Shown piece by piece: positions 19,706-35,403 of a stretch of DNA of 64,000 nucleotides (position 1 is its first letter; every line of letters begins with the position of its first letter). The position numbers and the translations under genes were made by a program. This DNA is from Terriglobia bacterium (lineage in GTDB: Bacteria; Acidobacteriota; Terriglobia; UBA7540): positions 9,875 through 73,874 of the forward strand of contig DATJYK010000085.1 of assembly GCA_035578005.1 (NCBI GenBank), written 5' to 3'. The notes beneath the pieces were generated by a model. It had not been told where the DNA came from and made no database searches. It was given only the letters and a program-made list of their open reading frames with translations.

Positions 19706-20569
19706 GTGGCGATAAGCCCTCTCGAGCTCGTCCGACTCCCGGACTTGATGAGACGCGGCCCGGGCCGGCCGGAGGTCACCATTGCGCTCATCGATGGCCC
19801 TGTCGCTCGAGACCTTCCCGACTTCGCCGTCGCCACCATCCGTGAAATCCCCGGAAAGCTGAAAGGAACCTGCGCTCGCGCGGATACCGTCGCGTGCACG
19901 CACGGCACCTTCGTCGCCGGCATGCTCGCCGCCCGCCGCGGCTCCGCGGCTCCCGCCATCTGTCCCGGATGCACGCTGCTGCTTCGCCCCATTTTTCCAG
20001 AGGCGGTGAACGACGGAGACATGCCAAGTGCCACTCCCGAGGAGCTCGCCGAGGCTATTACGGATAGCGTCGAGGCCGGAGCCAAGGTGATCAATTTGAG
20101 CGCGGCACTGGTTCAAGCGTCACCGAAAGGCGAAAGCAACTTGGAGCAAGCGCTCAACTACGCAGCCCAGCGCGGCGTCATCACAGTTGCCGCGGCCGGC
20201 AATCAAGGAACGGTGGGCAGCTCGGCCATCACGAGGCACCCTTGGGTTATTCCGGTTGCGGCCTGCAATCTTCAGGGCCGGCCGCTGGGCGAATCGAATC
20301 TGGGAAGCTCGATCGGCAGGCAGGGGCTACTTGCTCCCGGCGAACAGGTCACCAGCCTGAGCTCCGACGGCAGGCCGCAAACCTTGGGCGGGACCAGTGC
20401 GGCTGCGCCTTTCGTGACAGGTGCGATCGGGCTTCTTTGGTCCGAGTTTCCGAAGGCGCGCGCCTCGGAAGTGAAGCTGGCGGTGACACGCCGCGGCCGC
20501 CAACTGCACAGATCATTAGTGCCGCCTTTGCTGGACGCCTGGGCGGCCTATCAGGCCTTGTCTGCCTGA
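19706..20569 (+). CDS. S8 family subtilisin-like serine peptidase, no signal peptide and no prodomain
   Basis: Catalytic motifs in order: Asp (VTIALIDGPV), His (CTHGTFVAGM), Asn (NLSAA) and Ser (GTSAAAPFVTGA). At 287 aa it is minimal, and its N-terminus is hydrophilic. Confidence 0.85.
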   Translation: MAISPLELVRLPDLMRRGPGRPEVTIALIDGPVARDLPDFAVATIREIPGKLKGTCARADTVACTHGTFVAGMLAARRGSAAPAICPGCTLLLRPIFPEAVNDGDMPSATPEELAEAITDSVEAGAKVINLSAALVQASPKGESNLEQALNYAAQRGVITVAAAGNQGTVGSSAITRHPWVIPVAACNLQGRPLGESNLGSSIGRQGLLAPGEQVTSLSSDGRPQTLGGTSAAAPFVTGAIGLLWSEFPKARASEVKLAVTRRGRQLHRSLVPPLLDAWAAYQALSA

Positions 20570-20661
20570 ACGCACTGCACCTCTGTCCGCGTGTAGGAAG
20601 GCAAGTGCCCAAAGGCTCTGGCTGATTGCCGATGGAGAGCTTAACCGTAACGAGGTTGAAA

Positions 20662-21051
20662 ACCATGATGAGAATTCCTGGATTTCACGCAGAAGCCGCT
20701 CTTTACCAGACAGGCCTAGGTTGTGGGGTTCGCAAGTCGCCTGCCCAACTGCCAATCCAGGGGGTGTTCCCTCAACTGCTACCCATCGACGACATCTGCG
20801 GGGGCGAGGAGTGGTGCGAAGACTTGCTTATCGACTGGGCGTTCGGCCCGGGATCAGCCCCATACGGCACACCCATCACGGGAGGGTCCTTCCCTGTCTC
20901 AGGTGACGATTCGGGTGGCGATTCGGGGATGCGTTGCCGGGAGGGATACACCGACTGCACGTGTGACCCAGGTCCGCCGCTGAAGTGTACCAAGGACTGG
21001 GTCAACGTGCGGTGCAAAAAAGCGTACAGCGTCCCGTGTACGCCAAAGTGA
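20662..21051 (+). CDS. Cys-rich protein, member 1 of a five-gene paralogous family with a shared N-terminal motif (MMRIPGFHAEAALYQT)
   Basis: The conserved N-terminal 15 aa match four downstream ORFs. The C-terminus is Cys/Gly/Asp-rich (CGGEEWCEDL...CREGYTDCTCDPGPPLKCTKDWVNVRCKKAYSVPC). Confidence 0.6.
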   Translation, partial: TMMRIPGFHAEAALYQTGLGCGVRKSPAQLPIQGVFPQLLPIDDICGGEEWCEDLLIDWAFGPGSAPYGTPITGGSFPVSGDDSGGDSGMRCREGYTDCTCDPGPPLKCTKDWVNVRCKKAYSVPCTPK

Positions 21052-21417
21052 GCATAGCCGGAGCAAACCGGCTAAGCAGCGTCTCAGGCAAGAATCATTC
21101 GATGGAGGGTGACAAATCGAGACATGAACCGACAGCCAAAGAAGGAACTCACCCAACAAGCCGATCCGCGGCATCGGGTGCGGCTCCCGGGATTTCTGAT
21201 TGAAGAAGAGGTCGGCTTGGGCGACGCCATCAAGCGCGTCACCTATGCCATGGGCATTAAACCTTGCAGCGGTTGCGACAAGCGCGCCGCCGCGCTGAAT
21301 CGATGGATGCACTTCTCGAGATAGACCGGCTGTAGCGGCGGTCGCAGCCTGCCCGGTAAGGGACCGCCGGTCGGCGCTTGCAGAGCGCCGCTACAAATTA
21401 TAAGGAGGCAAAATTCT

Positions 21418-22371
21418 ATGGAGCAACCAGACGTGAACGACGCTTTGACAGCCACATCCGCCAATGGAAGTGACGCCGCAGCCGTGCCAGACTTTCCTGC
21501 GGGAGCAGGTACGGTTGCGCCCCAAGCTTGTTCCACCTGCGGAACAATTCCGGCCGGAGGCGTGGGGAAGGCAGTGCCGGCCGGCAACGGTACCACGAGC
21601 AGCCCCAGCTATATTTACGCCCTCGGACGCATCGAACCGCGTTTCCCCAAGATTTCGGTGGAAAAGGAGTTCGCGCAGGCTCTGGGGCGAGATAACGTCG
21701 CGGGCCTCACGGACCGGCAAGCGCTTCGAGCTGCGCTCTCGAAGCCCGAAAACCGCTACTTGGTGCGGCAACTCTGCTGGGTGATGACCATCGAGGGCCT
21801 GGAGACTTACATTGTTGGCCCCCGCGACCCCGCGGATTTCAGCCTGTTGGTTGAAGCCCTGCGTCCCACCCCGCAGCCTTGGGACCTTGACTGCGTCATC
21901 GGAGTTCGGGGACCCATCGCGCAACCCGAGATGTGCAACGGGCTGATGGTTCCCATCGTCGTCTTTGACCAGATCTACTCCTTCGACCGCGATTCGCTGA
22001 TTAAAGCCATCCCCAGGCCCAAAGAGACCTCGGCGAAGGAGTTTGCGCCGGCCGCCGAGGAGCTCTTCGACCGCATCATGCAGATGACTGACAATGCCGG
22101 CGCCACTGACGGCAATCGCGCTCTGAATTACCTCGCCGTTCGTTACCCGCGCATTTATGAGGTGGTTGCGGAAGCCTTCGGGCGTAATGAATCCTTAAGC
22201 GCGGTGGAGGTTAATCCGTCGCCCTTGAGCGGCACACGAAAAGTGGTTGACGTGGTCTTCGCCTTCACCAACCGCAATACTGATGTGGTTAGCAAACAAG
22301 CGGTACGCGTCGATGTGACCGACGAGTTTCCGTTTTTGGTAAGCAAGTTGTCGCCGTACTACGACCGTTGA
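21418..22371 (+). CDS. hypothetical 317-aa protein; possible homolog of the conserved C-terminal DUF domain of cyanobactin PatA/PatG proteases (recollection, not verified)
   Basis: Good SD (AAGGAGG) upstream. The segment SPSYIYALGRIEPRFPKISVEKEFAQAL resembles the Y-V-Y-A-L-G...F...E motif I recall from PatA/PatG DUF domains. There is no signal peptide. Confidence 0.65.
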   Translation: MEQPDVNDALTATSANGSDAAAVPDFPAGAGTVAPQACSTCGTIPAGGVGKAVPAGNGTTSSPSYIYALGRIEPRFPKISVEKEFAQALGRDNVAGLTDRQALRAALSKPENRYLVRQLCWVMTIEGLETYIVGPRDPADFSLLVEALRPTPQPWDLDCVIGVRGPIAQPEMCNGLMVPIVVFDQIYSFDRDSLIKAIPRPKETSAKEFAPAAEELFDRIMQMTDNAGATDGNRALNYLAVRYPRIYEVVAEAFGRNESLSAVEVNPSPLSGTRKVVDVVFAFTNRNTDVVSKQAVRVDVTDEFPFLVSKLSPYYDR

Positions 22372-22403
22372 AGGAACTTCAGCGACTGAATGAGGGCGAA
22401 ACA

Positions 22404-22670
22404 ATGAGCATTCCTGGATTCAATGCCGAGGCTTCGCTGTGCAGGACCAAGGCTGGTTACGGAATAACCGGGACCCGCAGACCTGCGCCTGCGGCACGAG
22501 GCGTGGTGCCGCAGAGGGACGATGGTGATAGGCGGTGCGGCGAGTGTTCCGACTTATTTCTAGGGACGCGGTGGTGCTGCGAGGGAGATCCGCTTAGTAT
22601 CTGCGCACCGGAGCCCTGTGGGCTTGTGGTGGCTATCGGAACCATTCTGGGCAGTGTGTTTTCGCTGTAG
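22404..22670 (+). CDS. Cys-rich protein, family member 2 (MSIPGFNAEASLCRT...)
   Basis: Shared N-terminal motif. Cys-rich core CGECSDLFLGTRWCCEGDPLSICAPEPC, with a hydrophobic tail VVAIGTILGSVFSL. Confidence 0.6.
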   Translation: MSIPGFNAEASLCRTKAGYGITGTRRPAPAARGVVPQRDDGDRRCGECSDLFLGTRWCCEGDPLSICAPEPCGLVVAIGTILGSVFSL

Positions 22671-22812
22671 CCACGGCCTGAAGGGGACTCTTGTTCCTGG
22701 TCACCAAGCTATCGCCGTACTGCGGCCGCTAAACGCTGAGAAACATTGAGAACCAGACGAAATTGTCGTCGTCGTCGGAGTACCCGCCAAGAAAGAAAGG
22801 AGAAGTCCTAAA

Positions 22813-23133
22813 ATGAATCTTCCCGGATTCAACGCTAAAGCGTCCCTGCAGGAAGCAGGCCACACCTACTGTTGCTTTGCGTACCATGGGGCAGGCTCAC
22901 TCACACCGGTCGTGGTACCGCAGTTATATCGGGCAGACCCAGACGGCTGCGGGGTAGTGTGCGATTCTAGCGGGAACTGCGCGCTGGATTGCCCCTGGCC
23001 GGGGGTCAGCTTTGGCCCCGGCGGCTTATCGCCTAACAAGAGCCCCAGAATTAAATGCGTCAAGCGCTGCATCCGCAAGTATTCGCCGGGGTCAGCCGCA
23101 TACGAGGCTTGTGTTGATAAGTGCCCCTATTAA
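22813..23133 (+). CDS. Cys-rich protein, family member 3 (MNLPGFNAKASLQEA...)
   Basis: AAGGAG Shine-Dalgarno 7 nt upstream. Shared N-terminal motif. 14 Cys in 106 aa (YCCFAYHG...CGVVCDSSGNCALDCPW...CVKRCIRKY...CVDKCPY). Confidence 0.65.
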   Translation: MNLPGFNAKASLQEAGHTYCCFAYHGAGSLTPVVVPQLYRADPDGCGVVCDSSGNCALDCPWPGVSFGPGGLSPNKSPRIKCVKRCIRKYSPGSAAYEACVDKCPY

Positions 23134-23326
23134 TAGATGTTGTGGCCGATGGGTCGGCCGAGCGCGAGTGTCACCACGTTCTGCCCCGCCGGATTGCGCA
23201 GGCGGCCCGATATCGTGACACGCACCGCGCCTCGGTGATTGCGAAGGTGTTTGGAGGGGCGAACTGTGACCACACCAGGGTATCCCCCGGAACCCGTCCT
23301 TAGACTATTGGGCAAGGAGTCTGGCA

Positions 23327-24694
23327 ATGTCCATACCGAGATTTAGCGCACCGGAGTCGCTTTACCCGTCCCACGGGTATTACGCCGCGGTCTTAGGTTC
23401 GAGTGACATGACCTCGGCCGCGTGGGTCCCCGCCGTGAAGGTCGGGGATGACGGAGGGGGTTGCGCCGTTGAATGCGGCCCTTGTGGCTCCACTTGCACC
23501 AGGCAATGTTCAAGTTTATGTAATCCAACCCAATCGTGGGGCGAATCGTGTTGCCTGAGCTCCGAGATTTGCTGCGGCGGGAAGTGCACTGACGCGTGGC
23601 ACGACCCGAACTGCGGGGCGTGCGGCAAGAAGTGTTCGACCTCGGGCCTGACTTGTTGCTACGGAGCTTGTGTTGACCTCAGCAGCAACACGCAGCACTG
23701 TAGCGCGTGCGACAACAATTGCGCCAACCAGCCCGTTAAGAACATGATTTGCGTGAACGGCGCCTGTGTTTGCCCGCCTTACTCACCGGATATTTGCGGT
23801 GGAGCCTGCACGGATGTAAGGTTCGATGGCAAAAACTGCGGAAGTTGCGGTAATCGATGCGCGTCCGGCTCCTGCTCCCAAGGCAAATGCTGCCCGCCGG
23901 GCACATACCTTTCAGAAGGCATGTGTTGTCCTAACGGAACCTTCGGCTGCGGTAACAAGACGTGTTGCCCAGCGGGGCATTGCTGTTCTGACGGTCGCTG
24001 TAAATGCCACGGTAAGTGCTGCGGCGCCGGCCAGGATTGCTGCAGGAAGTCCTGTGTCACCCTTGACAGCGACACACAAAACTGCGGCGCATGCGGCAAC
24101 GCCTGCCCGGTCCATGCGAATTCGACGGCCACATGCGATAAGGGAGTGTGCGGTTGGCGATGCAATCCGGGCTACACCAGGTGTGGTAACGCCTGCGAGA
24201 ATCTGAACAACGATCCGCAGAACTGCGGCGCTTGTGGCAAGCGATGCCCCTCGGGGCCCCTTGACTCGCACCCCACTTGTAGCCACGGGGCCTGCAATTG
24301 GACCTGCAACTCAGGTTTTACAAACTGTGGCGGCACTTGCAAGAATCTGAGTAGCGATCCGCAGAACTGCGGCCGGTGCGGTACGGTCTGTCCCTCTGGC
24401 CAGACTTGTTGCGGGGGCTCCTGCGTTGACTTGAATACAAGTTCCCAACATTGCGGCTCGTGTAGCGTTGCCTGTAATTCAGCCACTGCGGAGTGTCAGG
24501 GAGGGACTTGCGTTTGCAAGCCGGGACTTGCCTGCGGTTCAACGTGCATGTCGTCCACGGAGGACACCTGCTGCAGTTCCGAGGCCAGCGCCTGGTGCTC
24601 TGAGACCGAAGTGTGCTGCGTGGACAACAATGGTAATTTTAGTTGCGCTTACGATTGTGACGGGTGTGAGGCCGTGGGCGCACATTGCAGTTAG
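23327..24694 (+). CDS. 455-aa extremely Cys-rich repeat protein, family member 4 (MSIPRFSAPESLYPS...)
   Basis: AAGGAG Shine-Dalgarno. About 17% Cys. Seven tandem modules of C-x-D-L-x-[SN]-D-x-Q-N-C-G-x-C-G-x-x-C, for example CVTLDSDTQNCGACGNAC, CENLNNDPQNCGACGKRC and CKNLSSDPQNCGRCGTVC. Confidence 0.7.
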   Translation: MSIPRFSAPESLYPSHGYYAAVLGSSDMTSAAWVPAVKVGDDGGGCAVECGPCGSTCTRQCSSLCNPTQSWGESCCLSSEICCGGKCTDAWHDPNCGACGKKCSTSGLTCCYGACVDLSSNTQHCSACDNNCANQPVKNMICVNGACVCPPYSPDICGGACTDVRFDGKNCGSCGNRCASGSCSQGKCCPPGTYLSEGMCCPNGTFGCGNKTCCPAGHCCSDGRCKCHGKCCGAGQDCCRKSCVTLDSDTQNCGACGNACPVHANSTATCDKGVCGWRCNPGYTRCGNACENLNNDPQNCGACGKRCPSGPLDSHPTCSHGACNWTCNSGFTNCGGTCKNLSSDPQNCGRCGTVCPSGQTCCGGSCVDLNTSSQHCGSCSVACNSATAECQGGTCVCKPGLACGSTCMSSTEDTCCSSEASAWCSETEVCCVDNNGNFSCAYDCDGCEAVGAHCS

Positions 24695-24782
24695 TAGCAG
24701 CGGTCGTGGAGGGGCTGCAGTGGCCCCTCGATGGGGATTTTGCACCAGATCCGGTTCGTGATCTCAGAAAGGAGTATGCCGT

Positions 24783-25134
24783 GAACATGCTGGAAACAGT
24801 TCGATTGCCGGGATTTACCGCAGAGTCGTCCGTGATGAGCGCCAGTCCCTTTGGCGCTCGCGATTCCTTGTGGCCCTTCCTGGGCGCGGGAGTCGTGTCT
24901 GCCGGATCAGACGTAACCTGCAATTGCGGATGCCCATGCTCTGGAACAACCGGGGGCGGTGGAGGTACAGGAGGCACAGGCGGTACCGGAGGCGGCCCGC
25001 CTGGAGTCTGCCAATGCACTAGCGTCGTGGGCTTTGGTTGTTCGGTCTCCGCCAACAACTGCAACCCGGGATTCGTTCCCACGTGTAACTGCGGCATCTT
25101 CGGTAATTCGTGCCAGTGCGTGTCCGGCACCTAA
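24783..25134 (+). CDS. Cys-rich protein, family member 5 (..MLETVRLPGFTAESSVMS...), probably GTG-initiated
   Basis: AAGGAG Shine-Dalgarno 6 nt before the GTG at 24783. Shared motif. The C-terminus is CNCGCPCSGTTGGGGGTGGTGGTGGGPPGVCQCTS...CNCGIFGNSCQCVSGT. Confidence 0.6.
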
Positions 25135-26179: not shown

Positions 26180-26348
26180 ACCAACAACCGACGACTTAGC
26201 CGCCGAAGTGCACGCTGAGCGTGTATTCTGCGGCTGGCGGGGGGCACGAACCTGAGTCAAGGGCTATCGAGCCGGGCTCGCCGCTTTGTCGTCCGATGAA
26301 GGCAGGGCGAGAGCAAGAGGATTTCCTTACCGGGGAAGAGGGTCACGC

Positions 26349-28625
26349 ATGAAGACAAGGCTTGGGTCGTTCCTTCTAGCATCGACTTTCGTTGGCATAT
26401 GGGCGGCGGCGCAGGACCGTGGAGGTGCGGGACAAGACAGCAGCAAAGTGGCGGCCAATTGTGCGACCTGTTCGGCCGGCATCCAAGTTCCTGGAATGCC
26501 TCAGCCCAGCCCCGAAATGGGGAGGCTCGTGAAGGCCTTATCAGGCGCGTGGTCGATCGCGATCAGTGTCGAGCCCAACGACCGCATGCCCAAGGTTGGC
26601 CTGGGAAACGGTGAAGAAGTGTGGCGGCCCGGACCTGGAGGGCTGTCCCTGCTCGAAGATTATCACTCGACCGGCGACGAAGGAGAGATCACCGGTTTCG
26701 GTGTGGCCTGGTGGGACGCGAGCGCCGAAAGATTTCAAGTCGCGTGGTGCGACAGCACTAATCCGACGAGTTGCACCGTCATGAAGCACGGGGCGAAGTG
26801 GGAAGGGGAGAAAGTCGTAGCTCTGGATGAATGGGACGAGTCGGGGAAGGGAGTTGCGTTCAAGGAGGTGTTTTCCGACATCACGGAGAACTCTTTCACG
26901 CAAATCCTCTACCAAGGCGAGCCCGGCAGCGAGCTGAAGCGGTTGGTCACCATCCACGCGACGAGGAAGACGGCGCCACCTATAACAACCACGGGCGCTT
27001 CGACGCCCGAGGTACTCACCGCTGTCGCGGCGGCGAAGACCATCACCGTGCCGGCCGTACGGGCGCACATGCGATTCCTCTCCGACAGCCTCCTCGAAGG
27101 ACGCGACACCGGCAGTCGTGGCTACGATCTTGCGGCCGCGTACGTCGCCTCCCAGTTGGAGTCGATGGGGGTGCAACCAGCCGGCGAGAACGGCACCTAC
27201 TTCCAAAAAGTGCCGCTCCGGAAGGCGATCAACGAGGCATCCAAGAGCTCTTTGGCGTTGGTTCGTGGCGCGGAAGAGGTCCAACTCAAAGATGGGTCAG
27301 ACTACGTCTTTTTTGCCGATCTGGATCACACGGAGAGCAGCGTGGAAGCACCCATCGCCTTCGTGGGTTACGGAGTGACAGCACCCGAGCTGAACTATGA
27401 CGATTACGCGGGCGCCGACGTCCGAGGCAAACTCGTCGCGATGCTTGGGAACGCCCCGGCCCGGTTCCCCTCAATCGAGCGCGCCTACTACGCAGACGGG
27501 ATTACCAAGGTAAGGAACGCCGTGGCTCACGGAGCGGTGGGGGTTCTCGGCCTTTCATTGCCGGAGGACGAAAAAGATAGTCCGTGGCAATGGGCAGTCC
27601 CCCAGGTTCGGGCCGGAGGTCGCGATTGGCTCGAGAGAGGGGCGCCGCACCACCAGTTCCCCGAACTGCGAGCAGGGGCGGCGCTCAGCGTCCGCGGAAG
27701 TCAGCTACTATTTTCGGGAGCGCCCCGAACGCTGGAACAGGTTTCGGCCATAGCGCACGGGGACCAACCCCAGGCTTTTCCCTTGAGCTGGAGCGCGAGA
27801 ATTCACACCGTGAATTCTCATCAAGCCATCGAGAGCAGGAATGTGGTGGGGAAGATTCAGGGCTCCGACCCCGAACTCAGTGACCAGTATGTGATTTATA
27901 GCGCGCATCTCGACCACTTGGGTCTGTGTCCGCCGGTTGAAGGCCACAACGACACCGTTTGTCATGGAACCGTGGATAACGCGTCAGGTGTTGCCACCAT
28001 CCTGGAGATCGCCCGAGCGTACACCAAACTGCCCCAGCCACCGCGCCGCTCCGTGCTTTTTCTATTTCCTACGGGCGAGGAAGGGAACCTGGAGGGATCC
28101 GATTATTTCGCTCATTTCCCGACGGTGCCGGGCAAGCAGCTTGTTGCCGACATCAATCTCGACGTGGCTCCCGGGATGCGTTATCCGTGTAAGGACCTCA
28201 ATGCCATTGGAGGTGAGCATTCCAGTCTGAATCGGAGTGCGGAATGGGCCGCACAACTCACGGGTTACATCATCACTCCCGACCCGGTACCGGAACAGAA
28301 TCTCTTCATCCGCTCCGATCAGTATTCGTTTGTGCAGCAGGGAATTCCTTCCGTGCTAATTCGCAATGGGGCCGATGGTGGAGACGTGGTCAAGAAATGG
28401 CTGCGGACCCGTTACCACACTCCACTCGACAATATGGAGCAGCCGATCGATTATGAGGCCGGAGTCAAGGCTGCCGGAATGGCCATGCTGATGGGCTACG
28501 AAGTCGCGCAGCAAGATCAGCCACCCACGTGGAATAAGGACGATTTTTTCGGTACCCGGTTTGGGCCCAACACCTCCAACCCACTGGGACAACTGAAGAG
28601 CCCTCCGGACCGGTCTTCCCGGTAA
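26349..28625 (+). CDS. M28 family zinc peptidase with an N-terminal extra domain (DUF1579-like) and a PA domain
   Basis: Signal peptide MKTRLGSFLLASTFVGIWAAAQ. M28 metal-binding motifs HLDHLG, GTVDNASGVATILEIAR and FLFPTGEEGNLEGS. Confidence 0.8.
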   Translation: MKTRLGSFLLASTFVGIWAAAQDRGGAGQDSSKVAANCATCSAGIQVPGMPQPSPEMGRLVKALSGAWSIAISVEPNDRMPKVGLGNGEEVWRPGPGGLSLLEDYHSTGDEGEITGFGVAWWDASAERFQVAWCDSTNPTSCTVMKHGAKWEGEKVVALDEWDESGKGVAFKEVFSDITENSFTQILYQGEPGSELKRLVTIHATRKTAPPITTTGASTPEVLTAVAAAKTITVPAVRAHMRFLSDSLLEGRDTGSRGYDLAAAYVASQLESMGVQPAGENGTYFQKVPLRKAINEASKSSLALVRGAEEVQLKDGSDYVFFADLDHTESSVEAPIAFVGYGVTAPELNYDDYAGADVRGKLVAMLGNAPARFPSIERAYYADGITKVRNAVAHGAVGVLGLSLPEDEKDSPWQWAVPQVRAGGRDWLERGAPHHQFPELRAGAALSVRGSQLLFSGAPRTLEQVSAIAHGDQPQAFPLSWSARIHTVNSHQAIESRNVVGKIQGSDPELSDQYVIYSAHLDHLGLCPPVEGHNDTVCHGTVDNASGVATILEIARAYTKLPQPPRRSVLFLFPTGEEGNLEGSDYFAHFPTVPGKQLVADINLDVAPGMRYPCKDLNAIGGEHSSLNRSAEWAAQLTGYIITPDPVPEQNLFIRSDQYSFVQQGIPSVLIRNGADGGDVVKKWLRTRYHTPLDNMEQPIDYEAGVKAAGMAMLMGYEVAQQDQPPTWNKDDFFGTRFGPNTSNPLGQLKSPPDRSSR

Positions 28626-28871: not shown

Positions 28872-28975
28872 AAACCGTCAGGTGTATGAAAACAAAGGAC
28901 CGGGTTCGTCAAAACCGTCAGGTCTATGAAAATAAATAGGTTATTTTACTAAGCCGTCAGGTTGTTGATAATTAA
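28872..28975. repeat. three iteron-like direct repeats (A)AACCGTCAGGT-N-TATGAAAAYAAA spaced ~40 bp apart in an AT-rich spacer
   Basis: The three copies are AAACCGTCAGGTGTATGAAAACAAA, AAAACCGTCAGGTCTATGAAAATAAA and AAGCCGTCAGGTTGTTGATAATTAA. Confidence 0.7.
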
Positions 28976-35051: not shown

Positions 35052-35403
35052 AGAACTTCTTCCTTTTGATGAGAATTGTTCGATAGCGAGAAGAGAAATT
35101 CTAGCACGGAATGGCTCTCGTCTCCACACAAACCTGAGATTGATGAGATTGAGATGCGACCGTAGGGGTGCGGCTTGCCGACCCTCCGAGTTTGCACATT
35201 GCGAGCCCCGAAGGGGCGTTCTATCTCAGCCCAGGCCAACCGGCCTGGGTTCGAGGCACACCGTCATTCTGGGATTCAAGCCCTGAAAGGGCGCTCGATC
35301 GGTGGTGACTACTTTGCGTCGCCCTTTCAGGGGAATATCAGTTTCATCCGAATATGACAAGAGCTTCTGAAACGTCTGGATCCTCTGATACACTTGTCCG
35401 GCC

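Follow-up and report, generated by a model that had tools for sequence, protein, structure and literature searches.

A split PatA-type protease cassette beside leader-bearing, cysteine-rich precursors: candidate leader-guided maturation of disulfide-rich peptides in Acidobacteriota and other bacteria

What links a PatA-type protease gene to a row of cysteine-rich open reading frames (ORFs) that all start with the same short motif? The question is raised by a locus at 19.7-25.1 kb of a 64,000-nucleotide stretch of DNA ("the window"; contig DATJYK010000085.1, positions 9,875 to 73,874), which comes from a metagenome-assembled genome (MAG) of the Terriglobia (Acidobacteriota). The locus holds eight co-directional genes, all on the plus strand (Table 1). 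Five of them, termed precursors 1 to 5 here, begin with M-x-[IL]-P-[GR]-F-x-A-x-x-S. An initial annotation, made from the sequence alone, had pointed out these five ORFs, an S8 peptidase and a 317-aa protein, and had suggested a split PatA-type leader-processing system. After comparison with 80 related loci we favor the view, with a probability of about 0.6, that a split PatA-type machine carries out the leader-guided proteolytic maturation of disulfide-rich peptides and small proteins of ribosomal origin.

All five motif-bearing ORFs were confirmed. Searching the six-frame translation of the 64-kb window with the pattern [ILVM]P[GRA]F.[AS]..[SA] yielded exactly 5 matches, all located on one strand within 20.6-24.8 kb and 0-5 codons past an ATG, while 200 mononucleotide shuffles of the window gave a mean of 0.51 and a maximum of 4 matches. 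A GGAG/AGGAG Shine-Dalgarno-like sequence was found upstream of each gene. The ORF sizes of 88-455 aa and the richness in Cys given initially were correct, with 7-84 Cys in each ORF. Three of the five start coordinates were also right; the ORF starting with MMRIPGF begins at 20665 and not at 20662, and the one starting with MLETVRLPGF at 24787 and not at 24783, a position which is out of frame.

The first gene encodes the S8 peptidase. Pfam Peptidase_S8 was found with an E-value of 4e-25 at residues 23-260 of 287, leaving no room for a signal peptide or prodomain, in agreement with the initial annotation. Motifs around the expected active-site residues D30, H66, N166 and S231 are present, the assignment following the standard subtilase residue order D-H-S. 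The closest relatives in the PDB were the protease domains of PatA and PagA (4H6V, 3ZXX, 3ZXY, 4H6W) with 5e-32 to 4e-30, compared to 1e-16 for the PatG macrocyclase and about 1e-15 for classical subtilisins. PatA aligns colinearly with residues 20-249, while the alignment with the PatG macrocyclase starts only at residue 63, just before the catalytic His. This late start, taken with what is known of PatG, fits an enzyme without the PatG-type capping insert. The NCBIfam PatA model TIGR03895 scored 111 bits, below its cutoff of 421, because it covers both the protease and the adjoining domain of unknown function (DUF). Judged by these comparisons, the enzyme is specifically PatA-like, as had been proposed. 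The Cys residues C56, C64, C86-P-G-C89 and C187 are each conserved at 94-100% in this S8 family. C64 stands two residues ahead of the catalytic His, and in one aligned stretch PatA has only the second Cys of the C-P-G-C pair in common with the S8 enzyme.

The DUF of PatA and PatG occurs in every characterised cyanobactin pathway, and its structure was obtained in 2014. The initial annotation had proposed its presence in the 317-aa protein, and database searches bore this out. Pfam PatG_D was found within residues 65-235 (5.9e-30, 104 bits versus a cutoff of 27) and PatG_C within residues 204-314 (6.2e-33, 114 bits versus a cutoff of 25.9). The protein covers positions 324-595 of the PatA/PatG NCBIfam model, and its N-terminal ~60 aa carry a conserved C38-x-x-C41. 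Its sole PDB relative by sequence was 4UVQ, the PatG DUF (3.1e-5). The same entry was the sole Foldseek match at 1e-3 or better for an AlphaFold2 model of the protein, which was built from a shallow alignment of 24 sequences, is poor (predicted local distance difference test, pLDDT, of 50) and was used only for this fold match. The protein is 100% identical to hypothetical protein VMT20_05080, and its homologues form at least 7997 clusters at 90% identity. As late as 2025 the PatG domain was still labelled a domain of unknown function (PMC12639078).

Between precursor 1 and the DUF gene lies a gene for a protein of 66 aa, which the initial annotation had missed. The idea of a split PatA was correct, but three conserved proteins rather than two constitute the cassette. 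The small protein has the family consensus HRVRLPGFLIEEEIGLGDAIKRVTYAMGIKPCGGCEKRAAALNRWMHFSR with the invariant residues L21-P-G-F24, G31-L-G-D34 and the CxxC pair C48 and C51. It is 100% identical to hypothetical protein VMT20_05075. A total of 1308 clusters of homologues were found; the 120 listed all have 63-100 aa, no Pfam domain and the name "hypothetical protein". For the window's protein no match was obtained in Pfam, NCBIfam or PADLOC, and Foldseek against the PDB gave no match below E = 1. In its AlphaFold2 model a disordered N-terminus including LPGF is followed by two helices (pLDDT ~84). A tblastn match was found in 73 of the 80 loci, always between the S8 and DUF genes, and the small gene is conserved as strongly as the enzymes. 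In effect, the cassette looks like PatA split into pieces plus one extra subunit. CxxC pairs are conserved in all three cassette proteins, and the conserved Cys of the S8 enzyme, the DUF protein (C38xxC41, C120, C173) and the small protein (C48xxC51) may form metal sites or a redox relay.

The 80 genome loci were collected by a genome scan with the DUF protein. The initial annotation had proposed a search of other genomes for motif starts beside S8 genes, and these were found. Of the cassette genes, the DUF gene is present in all 80 loci and the S8 gene in 71. The order S8 gene, small gene, DUF gene and then precursors recurs across several phyla, with cross-phylum identities of 52-80% for the S8 enzyme and 58-78% for the DUF protein. 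Most loci belong to Acidobacteriota (Terriglobia, Pyrinomonadaceae, Bryobacteraceae). The cassette is common among bacteria of the soil and among nitrifiers. Cultured carriers include Nitrosospira multiformis Nl12, Nitrosospira spp. Nl5, Nsp1 and Nsp11, Nitrosovibrio spp. Nv4 and Nv6, Nitrolancea hollandica Lb and Acidobacteriaceae bacterium KBS 96, and other loci were found in MAGs assigned to Verrucomicrobiota, Brocadia, Anaerolineae, Actinomycetes and Proteobacteria. Several cassettes are present in some genomes; loci L025, L027 and L049 stem from one MAG. At L016, L046, L063 and others, a DUF gene 63-74% identical to the acidobacterial one sits in a MAG labelled Gammaproteobacteria, Alphaproteobacteria or Actinomycetes, which points to binning errors or else to a horizontally transferred cassette.

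Clustering of the ORFs over the 80 loci revealed no other conserved neighbour, be it a transporter or exporter, YcaO, radical-SAM protein, oxidoreductase, immunity gene or second protease; the other recurring "families" near the cassette were alternative-frame shadow ORFs. Domain searches of the window neighbourhood likewise found no YcaO, radical-SAM, exporter or other tailoring domain. The lack of YcaO, radical-SAM and exporter genes noted initially for the window thus extends to the relatives.

Leader-motif ORFs adjoining the cassette were found in 75 of 81 sources and numbered 175, with 169 on the same strand and up to 7 per locus. The shared motif of about 15 aa, initially taken for the whole conserved region, turned out to be the first part of a leader of about 37 aa. 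This leader consists of an N-terminal PGFTAEASLY box, a conserved Tyr, a G/A/S-rich spacer and a [VI]-x-P-Q junction at residues 34-37 (consensus MxMPGFTAEASLYKT...Y...VxPQ). Counting from the [MIL] before Pro, the frequencies among the 175 precursors are P 100% at +1, G 88% at +2, F 96% at +3, T 53% at +4, A 94% at +5, E 76% at +6, S 79% at +8, L 73% at +9, Y 48% at +10 and Y 78% at +16. In leader-selected alignments P4, F6 and P36 were invariant and Q37 reached at least 90%, so the spacing from box to junction is fixed. The strict junction pattern was present in 88 of the 175 precursors versus 10 after shuffling. The leader consensus contains no hydrophobic stretch, so the precursors do not fit the picture of Sec/Tat-secreted Cys-rich proteins, matching the initial statement that they lack a signal peptide. 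In a hydropathy scan TM-like (transmembrane-like) segments were seen in only 5 of the 175, and in the 3 whose sequences were inspected the hydrophobic stretch belongs to the core and not to the N-terminus.

Past the junction the Cys residues begin, the first at median position 41. Leaders contain 1.2% Cys, compared to 13.8% Cys, 13.7% Gly and 8.2% Pro in the cores. The Cys number is even in 86-88% of the precursors, most commonly 4, 6 or 8. The cores are otherwise hypervariable, range from 30 to 440 aa and show no conserved C-terminal (macrocyclisation) signature among the 175 precursors. One core family shared by several phyla (...V[VI]PAIPxCxNCD) is conserved again from V-[VI]-P onward. Several large precursors carry Stig1-like and granulin-like repeats; no enzyme or toxin domains were found in the largest ones. 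Two PGF-leader proteins, L041 4443-5861 (472 aa) and L015 9009-10259 (416 aa), combine Cys-rich repeats with a shared Cys-poor domain of about 200 aa (…LQLNAYNP…WMQYVF…VQYWD…) without Pfam match, which indicates that the leader can also carry non-peptide-like cargo.

Using the leader profile in an exhaustive search at E ≤1e-3, 4402 clusters at 50% identity were obtained, and in nearly all of the 150 matches listed the leader lay at residue 1 or a few residues from it. A word-indexed search with the leader alignment gave 252 candidates, a number which is no measure of family size, so the exhaustive profile search was used instead. In the reciprocal direction, 3 of 3 leader-selected proteins on long contigs were encoded directly after an S8 and PatG_D/PatG_C cassette. 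The proposal that the N-terminal motif marks substrates of the machinery is thus strongly supported by co-occurrence.

Within the window, precursors 1 to 5 contain 9, 7, 10, 84 and 12 Cys. The predicted leaders of precursors 1 (20665-20775), 2 (22404-22514) and 3 (22813-22923) all have 37 aa and end in GVFPQ, GVVPQ and VVVPQ, followed by cores with 8, 6 and 8 Cys, respectively. The leader of precursor 4 ends in WVPA, and Cys-rich repeats of the Stig1 / MXAN_6577-like type follow (Pfam Stig1 1.4e-16, 61 bits versus a cutoff of 24; NCBIfam NF041328, 121 bits versus a cutoff of 100); homologues were found in 8 loci. The leader of precursor 5 (MLETVRLPGF) is shifted by 4 residues and has GVVSAG at its junction. 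This precursor contains CNCGCPC and has homologues in 3 loci (L002, L007, L024). Apart from precursor 4, no Pfam or NCBIfam family was found for the window's precursors. At the C-terminus of precursor 2 (22620-22670) stands a hydrophobic tail of 16 residues, GLVVAIGTILGSVFSL, an uncommon feature for the precursors of the window and possibly a segment that inserts into membranes.

How might these parts work together? The PGF box, [MIL]-P-G-F-T-A-E-A-S-L-Y, would serve as a linear docking motif, bound by the DUF protein and/or the small protein, which would present the precursor to the protease. LPGF in the segment of the small protein predicted to be disordered suggests that this protein shares a binding site with the leaders, probably one located on the DUF protein. 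Its role could be that of a co-receptor, a placeholder or a regulator. The PatA-type protease would take off the leader, most likely after [VI]-x-P-Q (site A) or, alternatively, after A-E-A-S (site B). We favor site A roughly 2:1, because conservation runs well past site B. Site A lies at a fixed distance from the box, where conserved sequence gives way to variable and Cys-free to Cys-rich. The cytoplasmic S8 RiPP (peptide made on the ribosome and modified after its translation) protease ElxP requires Gln at P1 and Leu/Val at P4 (PMC10885120), and site A, with Gln at P1 and a hydrophobic P4, would be a site like that of ElxP. The exact cleavage site and the docking roles are held with lower confidence than the general mechanism. 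Released cores would fold with 2-4 or more disulfides and would plausibly act outside the cytoplasm, as antimicrobials or in competition. Products that are extracellular and disulfide-bonded are what the even Cys counts and the Stig1-like repeats of large members argue for.

Several observations weigh against such a maturation mechanism. Disulfide-rich products normally need export, yet both in the window and in the 80 loci the cassette comes without a linked exporter, signal peptide or oxidoreductase. The strict [VI]-x-P-[QA] junction occurs in only about half of the precursors. Five loci with adequate flanks (L015, L022, L025, L029, L062) possess the small gene, the DUF gene and precursors without an adjacent S8 gene, while four further loci without S8 are cut by contig ends. 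This makes the pair of small and DUF proteins the component most tightly linked to the precursors; at the five loci the protease would act in trans or is perhaps not essential. For L025 the same MAG holds two complete cassettes, L027 and L049. The PatG DUF showed no binding of PatE in vitro (PMC4259220), so leader docking by a DUF is without precedent. Binding, cleavage and disulfide formation are all deduced from sequence. Finally, the term RiPP fits only loosely, as no post-translational modification enzyme is present. Ribosomal precursors, a conserved leader, variable cores and clustered processing genes were all found; cluster-encoded modification beyond proteolysis was not, and disulfides are suggested only by the even Cys counts.

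Other explanations were weighed against the same data. A PatA-style cut directly after the box, between A-E-A-S and L-Y, would remove about 10-12 residues, with the other 25 up to V-x-P-Q being kept as a pro-region, trimmed later or included in the product. This version, the one of the initial annotation, is doubtful, although it is the alternative to which we give the most credit. The S8 enzyme is specifically PatA-like, PatA-like enzymes cleave after G(L/V)E(A/P)S (PMC10885120), and the box T-A-E-A-S has E in 76%, S in 79% and a small residue at P2. Conservation nevertheless goes on through L, Y and the Tyr at +16, and [VI]-x-P-Q sits at fixed spacing exactly at the boundary of leader and core, where the cross-phylum core family resumes conservation. 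Moreover, the conservation of E and S falls short of that of P, F and A, a pattern more in keeping with a docking box than with a scissile site. Rather than guiding a protease, the PGF leader could mainly be a targeting or secretion signal that replaces the Sec signal and feeds a non-classical export or packaging route encoded elsewhere, with the cassette as a chaperone and signal-peptidase module. Stig1 / MXAN_6577-type Cys-rich repeats are typical of extracellular proteins, and precursor 4 and several large homologues have them behind a PGF leader, their N-termini not being hydrophobic; the even Cys counts imply that the destination is oxidising. We consider this route unlikely, since no conserved transporter or other membrane protein was found beside the cassette in the 80 loci and, by inspection of the sequences only, no hydrophobic segment was seen in the three cassette proteins.

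Should the products stay inside the cell, they could be Cys-rich metal-binding or redox peptides, similar to metallothioneins or zinc ribbons, which the protease activates or turns over; Leu directly follows AEAS in 73% of the precursors and would become the N-terminal residue upon a cut there, possibly acting as an N-degron. The missing signal peptide and exporter, CNCGCPC in precursor 5 and the CxxC pairs of the cassette proteins agree with this. We nevertheless judge it improbable: the cores vary extremely and are arrayed in several copies, 6 or 10 Cys occur as often as multiples of 4, and large members carry Stig1-like and granulin-like repeats. Variable arrayed cores, Cys counts and extracellular-type repeats fit secreted effectors better than housekeeping metal buffers. 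The last explanation, chance or non-coding ORFs with the motif as an artefact of composition, can draw on the many spurious ORFs which a high GC content yields, and on nothing else. It was rejected as practically negligible in view of the 5 matches versus 0.51 expected in the shuffle test, the ribosome binding site-like sequences upstream, the conservation of the motif as protein across phyla while the cores vary, and the 4402 leader-profile clusters with the leader at the protein start in nearly all matches listed.

If leader-guided maturation holds, the consequences reach beyond the window. We tentatively propose, at somewhat less than even odds, a very large new class of leader-dependent disulfide-rich peptides, found in Acidobacteriota, in ammonia and nitrite oxidisers and in other phyla. 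It would comprise no fewer than 4400 precursor families (50% identity) and 8000 or more cassette variants, and the DUF protein and its 66-aa partner would form the leader-docking module of a PatA-type protease. This would be the first functional assignment for the cyanobactin DUF. Here the DUF has a gene of its own, a conserved partner and, in the PGF box, a clear candidate for its ligand, so that binding can readily be tested in a direct way. Soil Acidobacteriota and cultured nitrifiers would encode thousands of unexplored Cys-rich peptides. Screens based on signal peptides miss such precursors, and rule-based RiPP miners are expected to do so as well, since tailoring enzymes are lacking. For the traceless removal of leaders or tags, a cytoplasmic protease whose leader is defined could also be of use. 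Cultured carriers of the cassette make experiments feasible. In the full-text literature searched, with the motif strings included and subscription-only papers outside the search, no description of this system was found.

The coordinates of the eight genes are given in Table 1. The window's flanking genes are unrelated to the cassette and encode Wzz, Wza, an S9 peptidase, an M28 peptidase and an amidohydrolase. Using the PADLOC defence-system models, only generic subtilase similarity was found for the S8 enzyme, and none of the models matched the DUF protein or the precursors. An Acido-Lenti-1 small RNA (Rfam RF01687) was detected on the minus strand at 35204-35249 (41.5 bits versus a gathering score of 37), which fits the acidobacterial origin of the window. 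The M28 peptidase gene (26286-28625) is bracketed by two pairs of direct repeats, 26069-26122/29002-29055 (83% identical) and 26261-26288/28710-28737 (89%), suggesting a duplication or insertion there. The two copies of the first pair lie in different ORFs and encode TCRWYQ(Q/R)EGKAACLR. In the intergenic stretch 28872-28975, downstream of the M28 gene, AAACCGTCAGGTGTATGAAAACAAA stands three times in tandem at a spacing of about 40 nt.

Table 1. Genes of the cassette and its precursors (positions in the window).
Feature	Coordinates	Strand	Description
S8 peptidase, PatA type	19706-20569	+	287 aa; Pfam Peptidase_S8
Precursor 1	20665-21051	+	128 aa; leader motif
Small conserved protein	21124-21324	+	66 aa from ATG 21124; ORF opens at GTG 21109
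Stand-alone PatA/PatG DUF protein	21418-22371	+	317 aa; PatG_D and PatG_C
Precursor 2	22404-22670	+	88 aa; leader motif
Precursor 3	22813-23133	+	106 aa; leader motif
Precursor 4	23327-24694	+	455 aa; leader motif, Stig1, NF041328
Precursor 5	24787-25134	+	115 aa; leader motif

Comparing the locus with known systems, the patellamide pathway comes closest. PatA is the nearest solved relative of the S8 enzyme and aligns colinearly with it, both systems contain the PatG_D/PatG_C DUF, and both have a cytoplasmic protease without prodomain and precursors with a conserved N-terminal region and variable cores. The E-A-S element of the precursors resembles the G(L/V)E(A/P)S site of PatA. In the locus, however, protease and DUF are encoded by separate genes with the extra conserved 66-aa gene between them, and PatD (YcaO), the PatG macrocyclase/oxidase, PatF and an AYDG-type C-terminal signature are missing. 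The precursors are unrelated to PatE, with Cys-rich cores of 30-440 aa instead of cassettes of 6-8 residues, and the hosts are Acidobacteriota, nitrifiers and others, not cyanobacteria. Membership in the cyanobactin pathways was also considered. The PatA-type S8 protease domain and the PatG_D and PatG_C DUF, here as a separate polypeptide, are shared with them. No YcaO heterocyclase (PatD), oxidase or prenyltransferase was found in the window neighbourhood or as a conserved family in the 80 loci. Each cassette has only one S8 gene and no second S8 family occurs among the conserved neighbours, so a PatG-type second protease/macrocyclase is lacking. The 175 precursors lack a C-terminal motif and thereby the RSII/RSIII layout of PatE, only A-E-A-S resembling RSII. 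With heterocyclase, PatG macrocyclase, RSIII signature and PatE-type precursor all absent, membership was rejected.

NisP and ElxP, the leader peptidases of class I lanthipeptides, likewise belong to the S8 proteases and cut off a leader behind a short motif; ElxP is also cytoplasmic, and its P1 Gln and P4 Leu/Val resemble the V-[VIL]-P-Q junction. In contrast to class I lanthipeptide clusters, no LanB, LanC or LanT genes and no dehydration or thioether chemistry are found here, and the S8 enzyme is nearer to PatA than to generic subtilisins, a comparison which did not directly include LanP enzymes. Bacterial cis-defensins and the MXAN_6577-like / Stig1-like proteins share with the precursors small cores with even Cys numbers that are probably disulfide-stabilised, and precursor 4 scores above the NF041328 and Stig1 cutoffs. 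In a published survey of bacterial defensins (PMC11561630), a sequence was retained only if a Sec signal peptide was predicted for it, a filter by which the precursors described here would have been excluded. They differ from those defensins in having a PGF leader in place of the Sec signal, tied to a dedicated protease/DUF cassette. Leader-dependent S8 processing and the PatA/PatG parts are known components; the architecture, the precursors, the hosts and the added subunit are new.

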